Under the pieces are notes generated by a model. That model was not told the origin of the DNA, made no database searches, and saw only the letters and a list, made by a program, of their open reading frames with translations. Shown piece by piece: positions 1 to 53,906 of a stretch of DNA of 64,000 nt. The DNA comes from Rhodanobacteraceae bacterium (GTDB lineage Bacteria > Pseudomonadota > Gammaproteobacteria > Xanthomonadales > SZUA-5), in assembly GCA_016713135.1 (NCBI GenBank), contig JADJPR010000015.1:29080-93079 (forward strand). The letters are read 5' to 3'. Position 1 is the stretch's first letter. Every line of letters starts with the position of its first letter. A program made the position numbers and the translations under genes.

Positions 1-125
1 GCGGGCCTGGCGGCGGTGCGCGGCGTCGGCGCGGTGCCAGCCTGGTCCGCCCGGCGCGCTGTTCCCGGTACTCGCCTTTGCGGTCGCCGGGGTGCTCGGG
101 GCGCGGGCCGGCGCGCCGGTGGCCA

Positions 126-580
126 TCCGCCTGTGGGGGGCTGGCGCGGCGCCGGGCGTGTGCGCTGCCGGGCGGTGCGGTCGTGGCTGGTGCGGGCCGC
201 GGCGCGCGGGGGGGTGTCCGGCGCGCCGCGCGTGCCGGTCCGCGGCCGGTGGCGGGGCGTCCGGCGCGCGGCGGGGGCGCGCGCCGCGCTGCGCGTCGCC
301 CGCGGCGGGGGCCTCCGGCGGCGGTGGCGCGGCGCGCGCGCCGGGGCCGGCGCGCTCGGCCGGCCGCCGTGCTGGCGCGCGGCGGGCGGCGCCTGGTCTG
401 GTCGTGCCTTGCTGCGCGGGGCGCCGCGGTCCGCTGCCGGCCCGCGCCGGCCGGGGGCGGCGCGCCGCGGTGCGCGGGCTGCTGCGCGGGCGGGGGCGTG
501 CCGGCGGGGCGTGGTCCGCCGCCTGTGCCGCGGGCCGGTCGCTGGCTTCGTGCGCGCCTGGTCGTGCCGGCGCGCTGGCC
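126..580. other. Adenine-free, extremely GC-rich, G-skewed tract
   Basis: Hand count of 131-580: G 234, C 165, T 51, A 0. Only three A occur in 1-580 (positions 39, 70, 125). No stop codon in any of the six frames from 1 to about 637. Confidence 0.9.
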
Positions 581-679
581 AGGCGCCGGTGCGCAAGGGC
601 GTCCGTGGGGGCGCGCGCGGCACGCAGGCCAGGCAAATCATCGAACTGGTCGACGCCCTGCCGGCGCGCGCGCGGCGTC

Positions 680-1471
680 TCAGCAAGGTGCGTGGATCAG
701 CCGGATGATGTAGACGCCCGCACCGGTCGGATCGTCGAGGCGCGCAATGCGGCCAACGCCGGGCGCATCGAAGGCCGGGACGCAGGTCTTGCCGCCGAGT
801 TCGGCCGCGCGGCGCAGGCAGGCATCCACGTCCGCCACCGGGATGTACAGCGACCAGTGCGGCGGAATCTCGCCCCATTCCGGGGTCATCTGCAGGATGC
901 CGCCGTAGCGGGTGCCGCCGACGACGTACTCCTGGTACTCGACTCCGGGCGCGGGCTGCTTCGATGCCGGGAATTCCCAGCCGAGCAGTCCGCCGTAGAA
1001 TGCCTTCGCGCCTGCGCTGTCGCGGGTGGCCAGTTCCACCCAGCCGACCGCATGGTGCTCGAACATCGTGAAGTCCCCGGAATCGGCCGAGGCCGGCTGC
1101 CACAAGCAGAACACCGCGCCGGCCGGATCGGCCAATACGGCGCCACGCCCATGGCCAGGCACGTCGAAGGGGCCGAACACCGACTGGCCGCCGAGCTCGC
1201 GGGCGCGCGCCAGGCTCGCGTCGACATCGGCGACCGCGAAATAGACCTGCCAGGCCGAAGGGCGGCCCTCGCTGCCGGGCAGCATGCCGCACAGCGCGCC
1301 GATGGTGCCGCTGGCATTGCGCAGGAAGGTGTAGTTGCCCATCTCGCCCATGTCGTTGTGCACATGGTTCCAGCCGAACAAGGCCTGGTGGAAGGCGAGC
1401 GAGGCATCCGCATTGCGGCTGGTCAGTTCGAACCAGCAGGGCGCCCCGGTGGGCGGGCAATGGAGTGGCAT
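680..1471 (-). CDS. VOC/glyoxalase-family protein with two tandem glyoxalase-like domains
   Basis: ORF 680..1507. Two repeats of the pattern WFEL..D...A..FY..LFGW ... V.DP.GA.F typical of the vicinal-oxygen-chelate fold. ATG at 1471 (MPLHCPP) preferred over GTG at 1507. Confidence 0.75.
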   Translation of the reverse strand: MPLHCPPTGAPCWFELTSRNADASLAFHQALFGWNHVHNDMGEMGNYTFLRNASGTIGALCGMLPGSEGRPSAWQVYFAVADVDASLARARELGGQSVFGPFDVPGHGRGAVLADPAGAVFCLWQPASADSGDFTMFEHHAVGWVELATRDSAGAKAFYGGLLGWEFPASKQPAPGVEYQEYVVGGTRYGGILQMTPEWGEIPPHWSLYIPVADVDACLRRAAELGGKTCVPAFDAPGVGRIARLDDPTGAGVYIIRLIHAPC

Positions 1472-1609
1472 GGGCGAGTCCCGTCTTGTGGGGACATCAG
1501 GGTGCACCGGCGGCGCATCGCTGGCAAGTGCGCAGGGGCCCTGAAATCACTGGAGCGCCGGCTCCGCCAGGCGACCAGTGGCTCGCGCCCGGGCACCTTC
1601 CGGGGGGCG

Positions 1610-2926
1610 CTACCCCACCGGCGGCAGCGCCTGGACCACGCGGTTGCGGCCGGCGCGCTTGGCCGCGTACAGCGCCGCATCGGCACGCGCGAAGAGTTCG
1701 CTCGGACTTTCGCCTGGCCGGTGCTGGGCGATGCCGGCCGAAAAGGTCGAGGCCACCGGCTCGCCGGCGACGCCGACTTCGATGCCGGCATAGCGTCGGC
1801 GCCAGGCCTCGATCTGACGTGCACCGTCGGCGGACTGGGATGCAGTCATGACCACCGCGAACTCCTCCCCGCCATAGCGGAAGGCGAGGTCCTGGGCGCG
1901 GTTGTCGGCCAGCAGCACGCGCCCCAGTTCGGCGAGGAAGCGGTCGCCGACCGCATGCCCATGGCGGTCGTTCAACTGCTTGAAGTGGTCGATGTCGATC
2001 ATCGCCAGGCATGCCGGAATGCCGGCCTGCGCCGCGCGGGTCAGCTCGCGCTGCAGGATCTCGTCGAAATAGCGCCGGTTGTACAGCCCGGTCAGCGGGC
2101 AGCGAATCGCCTGCTCGCGCAACTGCCCGTGCAGCCGCTCGATCTCGGCGATGCGCTGGGCCAGCTCGTCGCGCGCCTCGCGCAACTCCTGTGCGGCGCG
2201 CACGCGCTCGGTCACGTCCTGCTTGATCGCGATGTAATGGCTGACGCGGCCGCGCTCATCCTTGACCGGCGCGATGGTCTGTTCCTCGAAATACTCGCTG
2301 CCATCCTTGCGCCGGTTGACGATGTCGCCATGCCAGACCTCGCCGGCGCGCAGGGCGGACCACAGCCGCGTGTAGAAGTCCGCATCGTGGCGACCGGACT
2401 TGAGCAGGCTCGGGCGGGCGCCGATCAGTTCTTCGGGGGTGTAGCCGGTCATGCGGCATACCGCCGGATTGACTCGAACGATCAGGCCCTCCGCATCGGT
2501 GACCAGCACCCCGCTGGCCGCGGCATCGATCGCCACCGACAGCAGGCGCACCTTCTGCTGCGCCGCGCGGCTGGCGCTGACCTCGCGCATCGCCACCAGC
2601 ACCTGGCGCTGGTCGCCCAACTGCAGGGGCCTGAGCGCGATGTCGACCGGCACCTCGCTCCCGCTGCGGTGCACTGCCGTCAGTTCCATGCCGCTGGCCA
2701 TCGGCCGGTGCGAAGGGTTGGCCATGTAGCCCTCGCGCAGCCGCGAGTGATCGGTCACGCGCAGCGGCACCAGGCACTCCATCAGGCGGCCCTGCAGATC
2801 CTCCGCGCGCCAGCCGAGCAGGGTGTCGCACATGCGGTTGGCGTAGCGGATCACGCCGCCGGCATCGACGAGCACCACGGCATCCGGAAACAACTCCAGC
2901 CAGCCGGTGTCGGTGAGATCGGTCAT
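1610..2926 (-). CDS. PAS-PAS-GGDEF diguanylate cyclase
   Basis: ORF 1610..2962. Two PAS-like segments, then a GGDEF domain with RYGGEEF and an RxxD I-site (RAQD) five residues upstream. Start is ATG 2926 (MTDLTD) or ATG 2962. Confidence 0.85.
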   Translation of the reverse strand: MTDLTDTGWLELFPDAVVLVDAGGVIRYANRMCDTLLGWRAEDLQGRLMECLVPLRVTDHSRLREGYMANPSHRPMASGMELTAVHRSGSEVPVDIALRPLQLGDQRQVLVAMREVSASRAAQQKVRLLSVAIDAAASGVLVTDAEGLIVRVNPAVCRMTGYTPEELIGARPSLLKSGRHDADFYTRLWSALRAGEVWHGDIVNRRKDGSEYFEEQTIAPVKDERGRVSHYIAIKQDVTERVRAAQELREARDELAQRIAEIERLHGQLREQAIRCPLTGLYNRRYFDEILQRELTRAAQAGIPACLAMIDIDHFKQLNDRHGHAVGDRFLAELGRVLLADNRAQDLAFRYGGEEFAVVMTASQSADGARQIEAWRRRYAGIEVGVAGEPVASTFSAGIAQHRPGESPSELFARADAALYAAKRAGRNRVVQALPPVG

Positions 2927-3036
2927 CGCGGCGCCCCCTGCGCATTGCAACGCCCAAGCCATCAGTCTGACGATTGCCCGATGCGTCTGCCTTGACCCGG
3001 CTTAAACTTGCGCGCTTTTCACTCCGGAGCCCCGCC

Positions 3037-4209
3037 ATGCGCCACCCCGCCCAGATCCGCATCCCGGCCACCTACATGCGCGGCGGCACCAGCAAGGGCG
3101 TGTTCTTCCGCCTGGCGGACCTACCGGTGGCGGCGCAGCGGCCGGGGCCGGCGCGCGATGCACTGCTGATGCGCGTGATCGGCAGCCCGGACCCGTATGC
3201 CAAGCACACCGACGGCATGGGTGGCGCCACCAGCAGCACCAGCAAGTGCGTGATCATCGGGCCGGCATCCGTGCCGGATCATGATGTCGATTACCTTTAC
3301 GGCCAGGTGGCGATCGAACAGGCCTTCGTCGATTGGTCCGGCAACTGCGGCAATCTGTCGAGCGCGGTCGGGCCGTTCGCGATCGCCAACGGATTCATCG
3401 ATCCTGCCCGGGTGCCGCGCGACGGCATCTGCACCGTGCGCATCTGGCAGGCCAACATCGGCAAAACCATCGTTGCGCATGTGCCGGTGAGCGCTGGCCA
3501 GGTGCAGGAAACCGGCGACTTCGAGCTCGACGGCGTGACCTTCCCGGCGGCCGAGATCGTGCTCGAGTTCCTCGACCCGGCCGAAGATGATGGCGAAGGC
3601 GGCTCGATGTTCCCGACCGGCAAGCTGGTCGACGATCTGGACGTCCCGGGAGTGGGCACCCTGAAGGCGACCATGATCAACGCCGGCATCCCGACTGTCT
3701 TCGTCAATGCCGCCGACATCGGCCTGGCCGGAACCGAGCTGCAGCCCGAGATCAACGGCGACTCCGCACGCCTGGCCATGTTCGAAGCGATCCGCGCCCA
3801 CGGTGCTCTGCGCATGGGCCTGATCAAGGACCTCGGCGAGGCCGCCACCCGCCAGCACACGCCGAAGATCGCCTTCGTCGCGCCGCCGCAGCCTTACTTG
3901 GCATCGAGCGGCAAGCGCATCGAGGAGGCCGAGGTGCTGGTGCGCGCGCTGTCGATGGGCAAGCTGCACCACGCGATGATGGCCACCTGCGCCGTCGCCA
4001 TCGCCACCGCCGCCTCGGTGCCCGGCACCCTGGTCAACCACGCCGCCGGCGGCGGCCCGCGCGAGTCCGTGCGCTTTGGCCATCCCTCCGGCACCCTCAG
4101 GGTCGGCGCGAAAGCCGAGTTCAAGGAGGGTCAGTGGAGCGTCACCAAGGCGATCATGAGCCGCAGCGCGCGGGTGCTGATGGAGGGGTGGGTGCGCGTG
4201 CCCTTGTAG
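3037..4209 (+). CDS. PrpF/GalD-family isomerase (2-methylaconitate isomerase-like)
   Basis: MRHPAQIRIPATYMRGGTSKGVFF... is the characteristic PrpF N-terminus. About 390 aa. No prpBCD or acnD neighbours, so substrate is unknown. Confidence 0.8.
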   Translation: MRHPAQIRIPATYMRGGTSKGVFFRLADLPVAAQRPGPARDALLMRVIGSPDPYAKHTDGMGGATSSTSKCVIIGPASVPDHDVDYLYGQVAIEQAFVDWSGNCGNLSSAVGPFAIANGFIDPARVPRDGICTVRIWQANIGKTIVAHVPVSAGQVQETGDFELDGVTFPAAEIVLEFLDPAEDDGEGGSMFPTGKLVDDLDVPGVGTLKATMINAGIPTVFVNAADIGLAGTELQPEINGDSARLAMFEAIRAHGALRMGLIKDLGEAATRQHTPKIAFVAPPQPYLASSGKRIEEAEVLVRALSMGKLHHAMMATCAVAIATAASVPGTLVNHAAGGGPRESVRFGHPSGTLRVGAKAEFKEGQWSVTKAIMSRSARVLMEGWVRVPL

Positions 4210-4210
4210 A

Positions 4211-4415
4211 GGGTTGTGGGTTCTGGGTTGTGGGTTGTGGGCGGCAACAGCCCGGTGTGCTGAAGCGCTTGCGGGAGCGGCTTCAGCCACCATTTTTCGC
4301 GCTGAGCCGGGGAAAGATCGCCGACAGAGTCGGCTCCGACGGGCCACGGCGTGCGAGCTTCGCTGCCACAACCCACAACCCACAACCCACAACCCACAAC
4401 CAGAACCCACAACCC
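4211..4415. repeat. Family-A element A1: (GGGTTGT)n arm, REP-doublet core, (ACAACCC)n arm
   Basis: Left arm 4211-4241 gggttgtgggttctgggttgtgggttgtggg. Right arm 4366-4415 ccacaacccacaaccc... is its complement. Core contains gggagcggcttcagcc and gatcgccgacagagtcggctcc. Starts 1 nt after the prpF-like stop. Confidence 0.9.
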
Positions 4416-4475
4416 TCAGACCCCATACCTGTGCCACAGTCCCGCCTTCCACCCACCAACCCGATCGAGCACCCC

Positions 4476-5198
4476 ATGGCCGACCCCATTCGCCTGTCCA
4501 GGCATCTCGCCGCGATGCTGCCGTGCTCGCGCCGGGAGGCGGAGCTTTACATCGCCGGCGGCTGGGTGAGGGTGGATGGGGTGGTCGTCGAGGAACCCCA
4601 GTTCCGCATCACCGATCAGAAGGTGGAACTGGACCTTGGTGCGCAGGCCGAGCCGGCGTTGCCGGCGAGCATGCTCTGGCACAAGCCCGCGGGCGTGGAC
4701 GCCGATGCGCCGGCTGATCCGGCATCGCCGCTGATCCAGCCAGGTTCGCGCGCCGCGGACGATGCCTCGGGGGTTCGGCTGCTGCGCCGCCACTTCACCC
4801 ACCTGGAATCGGTGGTGCCGATCGACGCCGCGGCCAGCGGTCTGGTCGTGCTGACCCAGGACCGCCACCTGGCGCGCAAGCTCAAGGATGACTTCGCGCG
4901 CTTCGAGCAGGAGTACGTCGTCGAGGTCAGCGGCGACATGCCGGCCGATGGCCTGGCGCGGCTGCAGCGCGGCGCGGGCATCCAGCCCTACGGTCCGGCA
5001 GCGATCAAGGCCAGTTGGCAAAGCGAAAAGCGCCTGCGCATCGCCGCCAAGGCGATCCGCCCGGGCCAGGTGCGCCAGATGTGCGAGGCGGTCGGGCTCC
5101 AGGTGGTCGCCATGCGCCGGATTCGCGTCGGGCGGCTGCCGATGGCCAGGCTGGCGGTGGGCGAGTGGCGGTACCTGGCTCCGGACGAGCGGTTGTAG
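4476..5198 (+). CDS. RsuA/RluF-family pseudouridine synthase (S4 domain plus catalytic domain)
   Basis: MADPIRLSRHLAAMLPCSRREAELYIAGGWVRVDG (S4-like). The PIDAAASGLVVLT motif carries the catalytic Asp. The 5' part of ORF 4134..5198 is translated repeat A1. Confidence 0.8.
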   Translation: MADPIRLSRHLAAMLPCSRREAELYIAGGWVRVDGVVVEEPQFRITDQKVELDLGAQAEPALPASMLWHKPAGVDADAPADPASPLIQPGSRAADDASGVRLLRRHFTHLESVVPIDAAASGLVVLTQDRHLARKLKDDFARFEQEYVVEVSGDMPADGLARLQRGAGIQPYGPAAIKASWQSEKRLRIAAKAIRPGQVRQMCEAVGLQVVAMRRIRVGRLPMARLAVGEWRYLAPDERL

Positions 5199-5209
5199 CT
5201 TGGAATCGA

Positions 5210-5362
5210 GTTGTGGGTTGTGGGTTCTGGGTTGTGGGCAGCAAGAGCGCGGGCGGCGGGGGCTAGTCGCCGGCTGCTTCTGCGCACGAATTCACGCAGT
5301 GGCTCCGGACTGGCCGCACCCAGCTTTGGCTGCCCACAACCCAGAACCCACAACCCACAACC
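5210..5362. repeat. Family-A element A2
   Basis: 5210-5238 gttgtgggttgtgggttctgggttgtggg is the perfect 29-nt reverse complement of 5334-5362. Diverged 94-nt core. Confidence 0.9.
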
Positions 5363-5398
5363 ATCAGAATCCCCTGGCGCACAACCGAACGATCACCA

Positions 5399-7282
5399 TC
5401 ACACCACCGCCAGATCCCCCTTGGTCTCCAGCCATTCGCGGCGGTCGCTGGCGCGCTTCTTGGCGAGCAGCATGTCGAGCATGCCGTCGGTGCCGTCGGC
5501 GTCGTCGATGGTCAGCTGCACCAGGCGGCGGGTGTCGGGGTGCATGGTGGATTCGCGTAGCTGCTGCGGATTCATCTCGCCGAGGCCCTTGAAGCGGGTC
5601 ACGTTGACCTGGCCCTTGATCTTCTCGCGCGCGACGCGTTCCAGCAGTTCGGTCTTCTCGCTCTCGTCGAGCGCGTAGAACACCTGTTTGCCCACGTCCA
5701 CGCGGAACAGCGGCGGCATCGCGACGAACACGTGGCCGGCCTGCACCAGGCTGCGGAAGTGGCGCTGGAACAGGGCCGAGAGCAGGGTGGCGATGTGCAG
5801 GCCGTCCGAGTCGGCATCGGCCAGGATGACGATCTTGCCGTAGCGCAGCCCGGACAGATCCGGCTTGCCGGGGTCGAGGCCGATCGCGACCGCCAGGTCG
5901 TGCACTTCCTGCGAGGCCAGCACCGAGGTCGATTCGACTTCCCAGGTGTTCAGGATCTTGCCGCGCAGCGGCAGGATCGCCTGGAACTCGCGCTCGCGCG
6001 CCTGCTTGGCCGAGCCGCCGGCGGAATCGCCCTCGACCAGGAACAGCTCGGTGCGCCCGAGGTCCTGCGAGGCGCAGTCGGCCAGCTTGCCGGGCAGGGC
6101 CGGGCCGCTGGTGACCTTCTTGCGCACCACCTGCTTCTCGGTTTTCAGGCGTGCCTGCGCGCGCTCGATCGCGAGCATCGCGATCTTCTCGCCGAGTTCG
6201 GTGTGCTGGTTCAGCCACAGGCTGAAGGCGTCATGGATCACGCCCTGCACGAAGGGCGCGGCGGTGCGCGAGGACAGGCGCTCCTTGGTCTGCCCGGCGA
6301 ACTGCGGATCCTGCTGCTTGAACGAGAACACGAAACTTAAGCGCTCCCAGATGTCCTCGGGTGCCAGCTTTACTCCGCGCGGCAACAGGTTGCGGAACTC
6401 GCAGAACTCGCGGATTGCGTCGGTCAGCCCGGAGCGCAGGCCGTTGACGTGGGTGCCGCCCTGCGCCGTCGGGATCAGGTTGACGTAGCTTTCCTGGATC
6501 AGCTCGCCCTCGGGCGTCCAGCCGATCGCCCAGTCGGCGGCCTCGGTGGTCTTCTTGATCGCGCCGGTGAAGAGGTCGGCTGGGATCACCTCGCGGTCGG
6601 CCAGTTGCGAGCGCAGGTAGTCCTTGAGCCCGTCCTCGTAGTACCAGCGCTCGGTCTCGTTGGTCGATTCGTCCCACAACGTGACCGTCAGCCCCGGGCA
6701 AAGCACCGCCTTGGCACGCAGCACGTGGCGCAGCCGTGGCATCGACAGCTTGGGCGTGTCGAAATACTTCGCGTCCGGCCAGAAGCGCACCTTGGTGCCG
6801 GTGTTCTTCTTGCCGACGGGACCGACCACGCGCAGCGGCGTGGCCGGGTCGCCGTGCGCAAAGCCGATCGAAAACTCCTGCGCATCGCGCTTGATCGTGA
6901 CCTCGACGCGCTCGCTGAGCGCGTTGACCACCGACACGCCCACGCCGTGCAGGCCGCCCGAGAAGTTGTAGTTCTGGTTCGAGAATTTCCCGCCCGCGTG
7001 CAGCCGGCACATGATCAGCTCGACGCCGGGCACCCCGTGCTCGGGATGGATGTCCACCGGCATGCCGCGGCCGTCATCGATGACCTCGATCGAGCCATCG
7101 TTCCAGACCCGGACCTCGATGTTCTTCGCGTAGCCACTCAGCGCCTCGTCCACCGAGTTGTCCACGACCTCCTGCACCAGGTGATTCGGGCGCGTGGTGT
7201 CGGTGTACATGCCCGGCCGGCGCTTGACCGGCTCCAGGCCTTGCAGGACTTCGATATCGGCAGCGTTGTAGCGGGCGGTCAT
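5399..7282 (-). CDS. parE: DNA topoisomerase IV subunit B
   Basis: GHKL ATPase motifs (VVDNSVDEA, DDGRGMP, GGLHGVG) and Toprim EGDSAGG. About 627 aa without the GyrB insertion. ATG at 7282 (MTARYNAADIEVL); the upstream part of ORF ..7468 is translated repeat A3. Confidence 0.95.
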   Translation of the reverse strand: MTARYNAADIEVLQGLEPVKRRPGMYTDTTRPNHLVQEVVDNSVDEALSGYAKNIEVRVWNDGSIEVIDDGRGMPVDIHPEHGVPGVELIMCRLHAGGKFSNQNYNFSGGLHGVGVSVVNALSERVEVTIKRDAQEFSIGFAHGDPATPLRVVGPVGKKNTGTKVRFWPDAKYFDTPKLSMPRLRHVLRAKAVLCPGLTVTLWDESTNETERWYYEDGLKDYLRSQLADREVIPADLFTGAIKKTTEAADWAIGWTPEGELIQESYVNLIPTAQGGTHVNGLRSGLTDAIREFCEFRNLLPRGVKLAPEDIWERLSFVFSFKQQDPQFAGQTKERLSSRTAAPFVQGVIHDAFSLWLNQHTELGEKIAMLAIERAQARLKTEKQVVRKKVTSGPALPGKLADCASQDLGRTELFLVEGDSAGGSAKQAREREFQAILPLRGKILNTWEVESTSVLASQEVHDLAVAIGLDPGKPDLSGLRYGKIVILADADSDGLHIATLLSALFQRHFRSLVQAGHVFVAMPPLFRVDVGKQVFYALDESEKTELLERVAREKIKGQVNVTRFKGLGEMNPQQLRESTMHPDTRRLVQLTIDDADGTDGMLDMLLAKKRASDRREWLETKGDLAVV

Positions 7283-7347
7283 CGGGTGTGCGGCGGGTTG
7301 CGTTGGGCCGGCATGCTGCAGCGTGCGGGGCGGGGAAGCAACCGGCT

Positions 7348-7525
7348 GGTTGTGGGTTGTGGGTTGTGGGCCGCGAGCTCGCACACCGCAGCCATGTGGG
7401 AGCCGACTCTGTCCGCGATCTCTTCCTGGCGGCCGCCGACAAGAGATCGCGGCTGAAGCCGCTCCCACCGGCTATCGGCACCCAGGCTCTTGCCGCCCAC
7501 AACCCACAACCCAGAACCCAGAACC
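7348..7525. repeat. Family-A element A3 (core inverted relative to A1)
   Basis: Left arm 7348-7370 ggttgtgggttgtgggttgtggg. Right arm 7496-7525 cccacaacccacaacccagaacccagaacc. The reverse complement of the core aligns with the A1 core (gtgggagcggcttcagccgcgatc ... gacagagtcggctcccac). Confidence 0.9.
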
Positions 7526-14429: not shown

Positions 14430-14707
14430 GCGGGGCAGGGGGCAAGGGGGCAGGGGACCTGTTTTGCGGCTTTGCGGATGCAATGAGGTGAGACGCGGCA
14501 CTGGGCCTTGAGTCCAGAGCGGCTACGCGGCCAGGTCACTGCGGCAAGCCATTCCCCTTGCCACGTGACCCTTGACCCGCCTTTCATCCCCGCGCAGACC
14601 CGGTTCAGACATGTCCCGCTAGCGTCCGCGGGGCCTGGAATCCAAACCGCGGCGCGGCCAGGCCAGCGCGGCAAGCCTTTTCCCCTGCCCCCTGACCCTT
14701 GCCCCGC
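14430..14707. repeat. Family-B element B1: (GGGGCA)n arm, core, C-rich arm, with duplicated right half
   Basis: Left arm 14430-14457 gcggggcagggggcaagggggcagggga. Complementary arms at 14553-14580 and 14681-14707. The 56-nt segments 14526-14581 and 14653-14708 are direct repeats. Confidence 0.88.
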
Positions 14708-14728
14708 CGTTTCCCTCAGGTCTCATTC

Positions 14729-33069: not shown

Positions 33070-33206
33070 GCGGGGCAGGGGGCAGGGGGCAAGGGGAATT
33101 GCCAAGGCTTCGGACATGCCCCGGATTCATGGCCGAGCGCCTCCATTCGCCCCAGTGGGGTTCGAGCCTTGAGGCAGCGGCCCCTGCCCCTTGCCCCTTG
33201 CCCCGC
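33070..33206. repeat. Family-B element B2
   Basis: Left arm gcggggcagggggcagggggcaagggga (33070-33097). Right arm cccctgccccttgccccttgccccgc (33181-33206). Fills the lysC/lysA to PP-loop intergenic gap. Confidence 0.9.
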
Positions 33207-34568: not shown

Positions 34569-34796
34569 GGTTGTCGGTAGGCGGTTGTGTCGGCAGCAGC
34601 CGATGTGCCCTGAGCCCGTGGGAGCGGCTTCAGCCGCGATCTTTTCCCGGCGGCTGCTGGAGAAGATCGCCGACAGAGTCGGCTCCCACAGGTGTGTCGG
34701 TGTTCGAGCCTTGCTGCCCAGAACCCAGAACCCACAACCCACAACCCACAACCCACAACCCACAACCCACAACCCACAACCCACAACCCACAACCC
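34569..34796. repeat. Family-A element A4 with asymmetric arm expansion
   Basis: Degenerate left arm ggttgtcggtaggcggttgtgtcgg. REP doublet 34618-34689 (gtgggagcggcttcagccgcgatc ... gatcgccgacagagtcggctcccac). Right arm 34717-34796 is about 11 heptamers of CCCA(C/G)AA. Confidence 0.9.
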
Positions 34797-38916: not shown

Positions 38917-39067
38917 GTGGGAGCGGCTTCAGCCGCGATCTTTTCCCTGCGGCGGCTGGAAAGGTCGCCGACAGAGTCGGCTCCCACAGGCTGGCGGTGT
39001 GCAGGCTCTGCTGCCCACAACCCACAACCCACAACCCACAACCCGCCCACAAACCCACAACCCGCCC
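38917..39067. repeat. Family-A element A5 (REP doublet plus right arm only)
   Basis: gtgggagcggcttcagccgcgatc...gtcgccgacagagtcggctcccac, then cccacaacccacaacccacaacccacaacccgcccacaaacccacaaccc (39014-39067). The left heptamer arm is missing next to the MITE-like element. Confidence 0.88.
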
Positions 39068-39158
39068 CGTGCATGTCCGCCCGCCACAGCGTTTCCCGTT
39101 CCCTGAAAGACCGGCCGCACCTGCGGCTGTCTGCGGCCAACCCGAACGGAGAAAGACC

Positions 39159-49112: not shown

Positions 49113-49206
49113 GCGGGGCAGGGGGCAGGGGGCAGGAGACCGGGCTTCGCCGCATGGTTGAACCGTGCTGCGAGTTTCGTCCCTTGCCCCCTGACCCCTT
49201 CCCCGC
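49113..49206. repeat. Family-B element B3 (short core)
   Basis: Left arm gcggggcagggggcagggggcagga (49113-49137). Right arm tcccttgccccctgaccccttccccgc (49180-49206). Confidence 0.88.
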
Positions 49207-50631: not shown

Positions 50632-50825
50632 GGCGTCAGGAGGGCACGAGGGCACGCCAAGACCTTATCCCAGATCCAGCCTCGCACACTGCGGGAGTGG
50701 TTGGAAAGTCAGCACAATCAGTTACTTGCAATGGTTCCCGAGATCGCGAGCCTTTTCGGCCCTCGCGCCCTCGCGCCCTCGCGCCCTCGCGCCCTCGCGC
50801 CCTCGCGCCCTCGCGCCCTCGCGCC
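50631..50825. repeat. Family-D element D2: 2 GAGGGCAC units, conserved core, 8 CCCTCGCG units
   Basis: ggagggcacgagggcacg (50639-50656). Core 50657-50757 is homologous to D1. (ccctcgcg)x8 spans 50760-50825 and abuts the stop (50826-50828) of the convergent BNR gene. The left end touches the der stop. Confidence 0.92.
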
Positions 50826-53800
50826 TTACCCCGGCGGCACCACCACCAAATCCCGCTGCTGTGCATCCTGGACGCGCAGGCGCAGGTCCTTGGCGCCGGT
50901 GGGGCCATAGGTGGGCTGGGACAGGACCCGCACGCTGGTGCTGTGCGGGGTGGCGAGGCAAAAGGCGGCGAAACCCGACACACCCCCGAATGGATGCGGG
51001 GCGTGATAGCCACCGACGACGGCGCCGCCCTGGAAGCCACCGCCAGGCCGGTCGACGAAGCTGGTACTCAAGGCAAAGTAGAACTGGCCCTCCGGGTCGC
51101 CACCAGCGCTGCCGCTGGTTGGAGCGACGGTGACCTCGTAAAAACCCGGCGGCAGGTCGATGCTGGTGCTGTAGGCGGCCTGCAGCGAGATCGTCGCAGT
51201 CGTGTCGAGCATGCTGACGATGGTGGTGGCATCTGGTCGCCGCGAAATTCGCACGCGCACCGGGAGGCTGGCGCTGCTGCTGGTCGCCGGACTGCCGCCC
51301 AGATTCAGATTGAGACGTTGGTTCTCGTTGGCGGCGTTGGCAATGGTGAATCCGGCGAATCCCACCTGGCCAGCATCGATGAGACCGCCGAAGTTCAAGC
51401 CACCCGCGAGTACCCGGGTGCCTGGCGCGTCGAGCACGAGTTCCACCCCGAACGCACCGGGCCTCAACCCGGCGCCGGGGCCATCGTCCACCACGGCGGA
51501 GAAGAATCCGGCCGGGCAACTGGCATTCGGCGGATTCGGCGTCGGCAAGGCGTAGCGGTCGAGGCGCGGCTCGTCGGTCGGGCCGGTGACCACCACTGCA
51601 CCGGCGACCGCGAAGTCCCAGATGCCGCGGCCATAGGTGGCAAAGCGTGCCACGCCGAGCGCGTCGATGTAGTCGACATCGGTGTAGTGCTGGTTCGGCG
51701 CACCGGCGCTGACCAGGTCCACCCACTGCTGCGCCGCCGCATCGTAGTAGAAGGCACCCAGCCGCGCGGAGGCGAACAGGTGGCGGCCGTCCTGCGAGAT
51801 CGCGAGGCGCGTGATGAGCGTGCTCGGCAGTCCGTTCGCCATCGGTGCGAAAGTCACGCCGCCATCGTTCGACACGAATACCGCGGGGTTGCTGTAGCCC
51901 GCGCCGGCCACGTAGATGCGGCCCGGGCGGCTGGGGTCGAGCAGGATGTCGGTTCCGCGAAAGGTGGTGACGTTGGGGCCGACGGGCGTGACTGTGGAGT
52001 AGGGCGCGCCTGCCTCGGAGGTCCAGAACCGTCCGGCGGTGTCGAGCACGTGGCGGATCGCCGGATTGGCGCCGTATGCGACCGCGCCGATCGCGGTCGG
52101 GAAGGACTGTGGGTCGGCGACGTGGGTGATGCTGCCGTTGGCCAGGGTCAGTTCGACCACCTGGTGATGGCTGCCCTCGCCGAAGCGGCCGCCGGCGAGC
52201 AGCGCGCGGTTTGGCTGTCCCGGCATCGCCGCCAGCGCAGGAATGAACTCGAAGCCTGCGAGGCCGTTGTCGCTGAAATCCCAGCGCGGCAGTGCGCCGC
52301 GGCCCGGCGTGGTGGTGGCGGTGTCGACCATCGCAAAGCCGGGATAGACCATCCACACGGTGTTGCCGCCATCGGTCGAAGTCAGCGAGCCGTAATCGCC
52401 GCTGATGGTCTGCTCCATCGGCAACACGCCACTGGTGGGCGGGTCGAAGGCGCGCTGGTAGCCCTGGTCCTGAGCCCCGGCCATCAGCGTGTGCGGCGCA
52501 CTGCGACGGGTGTAGCTGGCGTAGTACTGGCCGACGTTGAGCCCGGACGTCAGGCTCTGGTTGACCACGCTCAGGGCGTAGTCGTCCGAGCGGTAGGTGC
52601 CGCCGTCGGTCGAGATCCAGGTGGTTTCCATTCCCGCCGCATCGCGGATGATGTCGATGTCCATGATGTCGGCGTGCAGTCGGTCGGCCGGGCGCGGGTA
52701 GTAGTCCGGCCAGTTGCTGACCTGCTGGAAGCTCAGGCCACCATCGGCCGAGCGGAACAGGTTGACGCCACCGACCAGCAGCAGGTTCGGGTCGCGCGTC
52801 GAGGACTCGGCGGAGTCGGTCGCGAACAGCCTGGTCGCCGCGCTGCCGCGGAACTCGAAGCTGGCGCCACCGTCGAGCGAGCGCCACACCTGGGTGTCGT
52901 TCTCGGCGTTGCGGCTGTGCAGCACGTAGAGGAAGGTCTGGCCGCCGGCCGTCACGCCGCCGGTCATGGTCAGCACGTCGGCCTCGGCCACCGTTGCCAG
53001 GGGCAGCGTGGAGACCGGCTGCAGCGCGTGCGAGCCCGCGACGATGCGCTGCAACTGGTTGCCCGTGAGCAGGTAGACCTCGCTCGAATCGTGGCGCGGA
53101 GAGAACAACTCGCTGTGGTTGCGCGCGCCGACATGACCCAGGTCGCGGAAGAAGCCGCCGGCATCGGTGGAGTACCACAGCCGCGCACGCCAGTTGCGCG
53201 CGGTGAAGTCGTACTCGACGCGCAGCAGGTAGACGTCTGCACTCGTCGGCTCGCGGGTTTCCAGGTCGCGGATGTACCAGACATTGGTGGCCGACAGGCC
53301 GCTGGCCTGCTCGTAGCTGCTGCCCCAGTTGTCGCTGGTGAAAAAGCCGAGCACATCGCCGGCCGACGGGACCAGCAGGCGGTCGCTGCCGTTGCGGACC
53401 ACCCGGTCGATCTGGCGCGCCTGCGGGAAGGTGGCGCTGTCATTGGGTGAAACGAAGCCCTGCGCGCCGCCCAGCCAGACATTGCCGCCATGCGCCATCA
53501 CCACCCCGCGCTGGCCGGCGACATCGCGGATATAGCCGACGGTGCGCCCCGACTGGTTGCTGCTGCCGCGCTCGCGCCAGACGCCGCTGATTGCTGGCGA
53601 TTCGAAGCGCTTGAGCGACTGCGGATCTGCGCCGGCGCCCAGCTTCTGGCTGCGTTCCATCTGGTGCCGGCGCATGCGTTCGCCGCGGTAGACCGCATCC
53701 AGCGCACGTGGATCCACCCCCGGCGCGGCGACCAGCATGCTGTCCATCCAACGCTGGCGCCATTCGCCGAAACCCTCGCCCTGTTCCCCGGGTTCGCGAT

Positions 53801-53906
53801 CGAGCGGCGCGGGCAAGTCGCTGGCTGCCTGCTGCGGCGTGCGCAGGGTCAGCCCCAGGGCGACTGCCAGGCCGAGCAGGAGAGCAGCAATTCGGGTGCG
53901 TCGCAT
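50826..53906 (-). CDS. Large secreted BNR/Asp-box beta-propeller protein (Sortilin/xyloglucanase-like) with C-terminal extension
   Basis: Signal peptide MRRTRIAALLLGLAVALGL. Asp-box motifs SLDGGASF, SADGGLSF, STDGGTY, STDGGNTVW, SNDGGVTF. 1026 aa. Confidence 0.8.
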   Translation of the reverse strand: MRRTRIAALLLGLAVALGLTLRTPQQAASDLPAPLDREPGEQGEGFGEWRQRWMDSMLVAAPGVDPRALDAVYRGERMRRHQMERSQKLGAGADPQSLKRFESPAISGVWRERGSSNQSGRTVGYIRDVAGQRGVVMAHGGNVWLGGAQGFVSPNDSATFPQARQIDRVVRNGSDRLLVPSAGDVLGFFTSDNWGSSYEQASGLSATNVWYIRDLETREPTSADVYLLRVEYDFTARNWRARLWYSTDAGGFFRDLGHVGARNHSELFSPRHDSSEVYLLTGNQLQRIVAGSHALQPVSTLPLATVAEADVLTMTGGVTAGGQTFLYVLHSRNAENDTQVWRSLDGGASFEFRGSAATRLFATDSAESSTRDPNLLLVGGVNLFRSADGGLSFQQVSNWPDYYPRPADRLHADIMDIDIIRDAAGMETTWISTDGGTYRSDDYALSVVNQSLTSGLNVGQYYASYTRRSAPHTLMAGAQDQGYQRAFDPPTSGVLPMEQTISGDYGSLTSTDGGNTVWMVYPGFAMVDTATTTPGRGALPRWDFSDNGLAGFEFIPALAAMPGQPNRALLAGGRFGEGSHHQVVELTLANGSITHVADPQSFPTAIGAVAYGANPAIRHVLDTAGRFWTSEAGAPYSTVTPVGPNVTTFRGTDILLDPSRPGRIYVAGAGYSNPAVFVSNDGGVTFAPMANGLPSTLITRLAISQDGRHLFASARLGAFYYDAAAQQWVDLVSAGAPNQHYTDVDYIDALGVARFATYGRGIWDFAVAGAVVVTGPTDEPRLDRYALPTPNPPNASCPAGFFSAVVDDGPGAGLRPGAFGVELVLDAPGTRVLAGGLNFGGLIDAGQVGFAGFTIANAANENQRLNLNLGGSPATSSSASLPVRVRISRRPDATTIVSMLDTTATISLQAAYSTSIDLPPGFYEVTVAPTSGSAGGDPEGQFYFALSTSFVDRPGGGFQGGAVVGGYHAPHPFGGVSGFAAFCLATPHSTSVRVLSQPTYGPTGAKDLRLRVQDAQQRDLVVVPPG

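Follow-up and report, generated by a model that had tools for sequence, protein, structure and literature searches.

An adenine-free tract in a Rhodanobacteraceae contig, probably an ordinary ankyrin-repeat gene that was read out wrongly

The stretch of DNA analysed here—64,000 nt from a Rhodanobacteraceae bacterium, hereafter the window, to which all positions refer—carries near its left end a minus-strand gene of the VOC/glyoxalase family encoding 263 amino acids (680–1471; Pfam Glyoxalase_6 and Glyoxalase) and, upstream of that gene, a PAS-GGDEF diguanylate cyclase on the same strand (1610–2962; Pfam GGDEF and PAS), which we used as a synteny anchor. Convergent with the VOC gene, on the plus strand, lies the intact 3' end of an ankyrin-repeat gene (621–708, frame +1), recognized by tblastn, ending in RGTQARQIIELVDALPARARRLSKVRGSAG and closed by the TGA at 706–708; the region from 1 to 620 on the same strand, colinear with the related contigs L069 and L079, would be the preceding part of that gene in a corrupted form, and continues beyond the left end of the window. 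The VOC gene (stop at 680–682) and the ankyrin gene share 29 nt at their 3' ends (680–708), which overlap is conserved in all the conspecific contigs (in L069 at 3274–3302), so that neither gene can own an intergenic terminator. A search for an intrinsic terminator after the VOC gene found none, and the predicted fold of 585–700 was ordinary (z = 0.18).

The VOC protein of the window is 100% identical to P0124 (NCBI MBK8068423.1), encoded on a contig of 111,779 nt from a MAG assigned to a Rhodanobacteraceae bacterium, while the remaining members of its 90% cluster are 92–98% identical to it. Exact look-ups of the VOC and GGDEF proteins of the window, and of P0124, gave no record. Homologues at 75–89% identity have other genes downstream—DNA_alkylation, a RecQ C-terminus, or a small CxxC protein—and no such tract as is described below; a search of genome contigs with the VOC protein returned distant relatives only (at most 59% identity), with no synteny. 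In one contig whose VOC protein is 89% identical (L063), the GGDEF–VOC synteny is kept and the ankyrin gene is replaced, the breakpoint falling exactly at the VOC stop codon; there, a small protein with two CxxC pairs is encoded on the same strand (963–1154 of that contig), starting 8 nt past the VOC stop.

Within the putatively corrupted ankyrin gene, the plus strand contains no adenine over 455 nt (126–580), which run is composed of 235 G, 168 C, and 52 T. The first 580 nt contain only three A residues, as an earlier note on this DNA had stated, and these are at 39, 70, and 125; the note's count for 131–580 (G 234, C 165, T 51), together with the distribution of the T residues over the three codon phases (11/19/21), was likewise reproduced. 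Throughout the tract the G+C fraction is 0.86–0.92 (about 89%), the AT skew is -1.0, G exceeds C 1.4-fold, and several runs of 5–7 G occur on the plus strand. All six frames are open over a long distance, the first stop in any of them being the minus-strand TGA at 640–638—in agreement with the value of about 638 given earlier—and the first stops in the plus frames being at 706–708 and 711–713. The second-longest A-free run in the 64 kb measures 78 nt and is due to a microsatellite, a perfect octamer repeat (CCCTCGCG, about 8.5 copies) at 50760–50827. That microsatellite is located directly downstream of a long minus-strand open reading frame (50826–53906). As a background we used the loci obtained from the VOC search of genome contigs, which represent distant relatives: in those loci, which number 58 and add up to about 0.9 Mb, many of them at 70% GC, there was no run of at least 150 nt lacking any one base. 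The length of the A-free run is far beyond chance.

To such a composition a minus-strand gene could in principle give rise, and the earlier note had offered that possibility in the form of a low-complexity, disordered N-terminal region that would begin near the ATG at 641 and continue beyond the left edge. Since all start codons contain T, the minus-strand reading frames can start only at that ATG, at GTG 623 or TTG 596 (all frame -3), or at TTG 636 (frame -2). The ATG is situated 38 nt beyond the end of the VOC gene, the open minus frames yield sequence rich in P, A, R, T, and G, and in frame -3 the A residues are fewest at the third codon position (12/19/21), all of which would be in keeping with a gene; but a search of 5.8 billion proteins at E ≤ 1e-3 gave no homologue of frame -3, nor did one of 1.84 billion representatives, scanned in full with HMMER, for frame -2, and the Pfam search at E ≤ 10 returned a single match, that of frame -3 to PP1_bind at 13 bits (E = 0.12, with a cut-off of 27 bits), all the other frames being without a hit. 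The periodicity was assessed with a codon model that, trained on 20 genes of the window, assigned pieces of 455 nt to their correct frame in 99.8% of the trials. Under this model the frame-likelihood margin of the tract was 12, as compared to 15 ± 5 for its own shuffles and 76 ± 15 for real genes of the window, so that its codon periodicity is indistinguishable from that of shuffled sequence and the earlier observation of no coding periodicity in any frame stands. The tract has no reading frame. In addition, its DNA is colinear with a plus-strand ankyrin gene that, when intact, has abundant stops on the minus strand, as detailed below, and taking together the missing periodicity, the missing homologues, and that homology, we consider a minus-strand low-complexity gene close to impossible here.

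The note had also proposed a non-coding island liable to form G-quadruplexes or R-loops. The excess of G over C and the longer G runs would favor a functional G-rich element of that kind. Canonical G-quadruplex motifs, defined as G3+N1-7G3+N1-7G3+N1-7G3+, nevertheless numbered 0 in the tract against 1.6 ± 2.2 in shuffles; moreover, the G runs that had been described as dense do occur, but show no excess, their statistics equaling those of dinucleotide shuffles and a control by A-to-G conversion being in agreement. Internal, inverted, and tandem repeats and palindromes within the tract were likewise not above dinucleotide shuffles. Furthermore, the assemblies of the same species lack the tract and have a normal gene in its place. 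Because the tract contains no canonical motif and there is no sign that it exists in nature in such a form, we dismiss the island, to which we would assign next to no probability.

Elsewhere in the window we counted 20 canonical G-quadruplex motifs, of which 12 are in heptamer repeats. These heptamer arrays, of the form (GGGTTGT/GGGTTCT)n ... (ACAACCC)n, are inverted and bound intergenic elements, flanking some 80–140 nt, as in the pairs 4211–4234 (+)/4372–4395 (-) and 5215–5238 (+)/5333–5356 (-), with further arrays at 7496–7519, 34717–34796, and 39021–39068. Each array constitutes a canonical motif on one strand, similar copies are present in the contig L070, and the elements so bounded would seem to form one family of small repeats of palindromic or MITE-like type. 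A second intergenic family comprises short G-rich tandem repeats, (GGGGCAG/GGGGCAA)n, partly in inverted pairs and all of them canonical motifs, at 14432–14456, 14688–14715, 33072–33096, 33181–33204, and 49181–49204.

The identity of the locus emerged from contigs of the same species, which are short-read metagenome assemblies of strains 2–3% divergent from that of the window and come from other samples. The VOC protein P0125 (97% identity) is present on 12 contigs, of which we examined 10 (L069–L078; nine from ENA metagenome assemblies and one from Logan), the ENA contigs among these representing two sets of sample accessions; P0133 (97.7%) is present on two Logan contigs of a separate study (L079 and L080, from SRR29289982 and SRR29289989). 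All of L069–L080 share the gene order PrpF–PAS/GGDEF–VOC followed by a convergent ankyrin-repeat gene, which, in its complete form, comprises 1071 nt and encodes 356 amino acids on the strand corresponding to the plus strand of the window; Pfam Ank_2 matches the protein with E = 9.5e-21. The gene is complete in 7 of these 12 contigs (within the range L069–L076, plus L079, from ENA and Logan and from two sets of studies), the other contigs ending inside the gene. Six of the complete copies are identical, with 137 A residues and an A-free run of 41 nt as the longest, and the copy in L079 differs from them at 4 of the 1071 nt; the seven intact copies contain 137–138 A, and the conservation of the gene among strains is 99.6–100%. 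Outside the tract, the DNA of the window is 97.0–97.9% identical to the conspecific contigs over 3.4–6.9 kb (window 621–7500), and at 621–1500 the comparison with L079 gave 30 substitutions, in all directions, and 0 indels.

The alignment then revealed that the window from 1 to about 620 is colinear with nucleotides 198 to about 985 of the ankyrin gene in L069 and L079; colinear DNA homology, syntenic position, strand, and stop all match the orthologue, whose continuous reading frame is absent from the window copy. With L069, the aligned part of the window extends as far as 780 and takes in nucleotides 198–1071 of the gene plus DNA downstream of it. Aligned to 746 nt of the relative, positions 1–580 exhibited 95 deletion events, with 166 nt lost, and 0 insertions. 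The losses were strongly ranked by base: 76 of the relative's 83 A were deleted (92%), 4 were changed to G, and 3 were kept; the corresponding deletions amounted to 26 of 99 T (26%), 49 of 277 C (18%, with a further 14 C changed to G), and 15 of 287 G (5%). All 21 substitutions in the tract were to G, and the spectrum obtained against L079 was the same as that against L069. In units of 60 columns, the deleted columns were spread evenly, at 9–17, over window 1–557 and then numbered 4 in 558–613, and 0 from 614 onward, so that the damage has an abrupt edge at about 605–620; beyond it, 634–780 differs from L069 by one substitution, and the last 88 nt of the ankyrin gene are nearly identical in the window and in the relative. 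The difference from these independent assemblies is, in short, a single block with an abrupt edge and normal flanks.

At the protein level, the comparison of the relative's product with the window by tblastn gave patches that switch among the plus frames—PPGALFPVLAFAV in frame +2, for example, and the C-terminal 40 residues in frame +1—because bases are missing, and the three plus frames of 1–713 matched zero Pfam families even at E ≤ 10. According to the earlier note, a conserved protein alignment in one consistent frame across the tract would have made the sequence ordinary low-complexity coding; such an alignment does exist on the plus strand, but not in one frame, since it hops from one to another.

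Two other leads were discarded. The composition of the tract (G52, C37, T11, A0) fitted a simulated conversion of every A to G in the DNA of the window, which explanation we discarded since there is no codon periodicity, no parent could be found with a collapsed alphabet, and the alignment shows the A residues to be deleted. In a metagenome scan, the 22-mer at 635–656 hit nothing but a pyruvate kinase gene of an unrelated organism, which it matches exactly (positions 1301–1322 of L068), the peptide IIELVDA being encoded in frame in both; that match is a chance one, because the similarity does not extend further in any significant or colinear manner, even after simulated conversion.

With these results, we assign a probability of roughly 0.93 to the proposal that what the window shows between 1 and about 620 is an ordinary plus-strand ankyrin-repeat gene read out wrongly, rather than DNA that exists as such. 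Judged from the alignments, the spectrum of the tract is not an evolutionary one, because the changes consist of deletions without insertions, are ranked by base, have miscalls to one base only, and affect complementary bases unequally, and because the adjoining DNA has diverged by 2–3% through ordinary substitutions. The tract may derive from one or a few low-quality reads in a single orientation, since A and T, as well as G and C, behave differently. The most likely setting would be an unpolished long-read consensus, possibly at the end of a contig, with which origin the start of the window within the damaged block is in accord; polishing with short reads would then have been unable to repair the tract, because such reads fail to map at about 25% deletions. 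A published MAG pipeline for activated sludge deliberately kept unpolished sequence by running Racon with --include-unpolished (PMC8012365); the MAG of the window may be a product of that study. A literature search on adenine-free tracts and contig-end artefacts yielded nothing useful.

Such a faulty read-out would also generate the features that had made the tract conspicuous. The loss of bases would shorten 746 nt to 580 nt and scramble the reading frame, and a frameshift every 6–7 nt erases codon periodicity. The deletion of A removes all the plus-strand stops and—A being the complement of T—all the minus-strand stops and starts, whereas the preferential retention of G results in the skew of G over C and the 89% GC; DNA of that kind, when translated, gives strings of P/A/R or of G/R/A/W/C. 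An assembly artefact had been the third option of the earlier note, and it is favored by the homology of the tract, by its error spectrum and sharp boundary, and by the intact gene that independent assemblies carry. On the other hand, no documented error mode known to us removes 92% of A and yet leaves 95% of G in place.

The competing interpretation would be that the tract is real DNA, namely, an ankyrin pseudogene that arose in a single event of strand-specific, adenine-skipping copying—by an error-prone reverse transcriptase, for example, or by a polymerase on a single-stranded intermediate—and then replaced the chromosomal copy. Since the damage is strand-specific, centered on adenine, and confined to a sharp-edged block, which might conceivably represent a conversion tract, the proposal has some appeal; against it, we know of no in vivo process that deletes 92% of A plus 18–26% of T and C, makes all substitutions to G, and leaves no insertions. 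Adenine mutagenesis of the DGR type substitutes bases and preserves the length, the ankyrin gene is otherwise 99.6–100% conserved among strains, and when the tract was compared by BLAST, in a collapsed alphabet, with the remainder of the window, no second copy or template came out above the level of shuffles. We regard such a pseudogene as having a slim chance at best. That the tract be genuine DNA whose strand-specific copying skipped A, and less often T and C, as at least 600 nt of a chromosomal gene were synthesized anew seems scarcely credible; such a process would be akin to retroelement-driven mutagenesis, but with adenines deleted. Returning to the faulty read-out, we infer from the sequences compared that the anomaly is an artefact, and that the underlying locus is an ordinary ankyrin-repeat gene beside a VOC gene.

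The biological interest of that gene pair is accordingly small, and the practical value of the result is in quality control: a public MAG record contains at least 620 nt of corrupted sequence in which a gene call has been destroyed, and the corruption mimics a compositional anomaly with no A, 89% GC, and six open frames. Scans for unusual composition, for G-quadruplex or R-loop islands, or for disordered proteins run the risk of recording such stretches as false positives. Deletion-only differences from conspecific contigs, the ranking by base, the strand asymmetry, and the abrupt boundary could be combined into a filter for artefacts of this type.

The window copy may finally be set beside three known systems. 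With the 356-residue ankyrin gene of the conspecific contigs it shares the position, the strand, the 29-nt overlap with the VOC gene, and colinear DNA over the whole tract, but it lacks 166 of 746 nt, 92% of the A residues, a continuous frame, and the Pfam match. With DGR adenine mutagenesis it has in common that the changes are centered on the adenines of one strand and confined to a bounded block of a protein-coding gene; DGRs, however, change A to any base, keep the length, act on about 100–150 nt, and depend on a template repeat with a reverse transcriptase close by, whereas in the tract the A residues are deleted, T and C are lost as well, the block spans 620 nt or more, and the collapsed-alphabet comparison within the window yielded no template copy. 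Nor does the tract resemble a DGR variable region, in which A would be substituted at constant length: of 83 A, 76 are deleted and 4 substituted, and the sequence is 166 nt shorter. The tract also has a likeness to unpolished, low-quality consensus stretches of long-read (meta)genome assemblies, in which most errors are deletions, good sequence gives way abruptly to bad, and the bias is strand-specific, as would be expected if reads in one orientation support the consensus; such stretches survive short-read polishing. The ranking in the window—A 92%, T 26%, C 18%, G 5%, with miscalls to G—goes beyond every error profile known to us.
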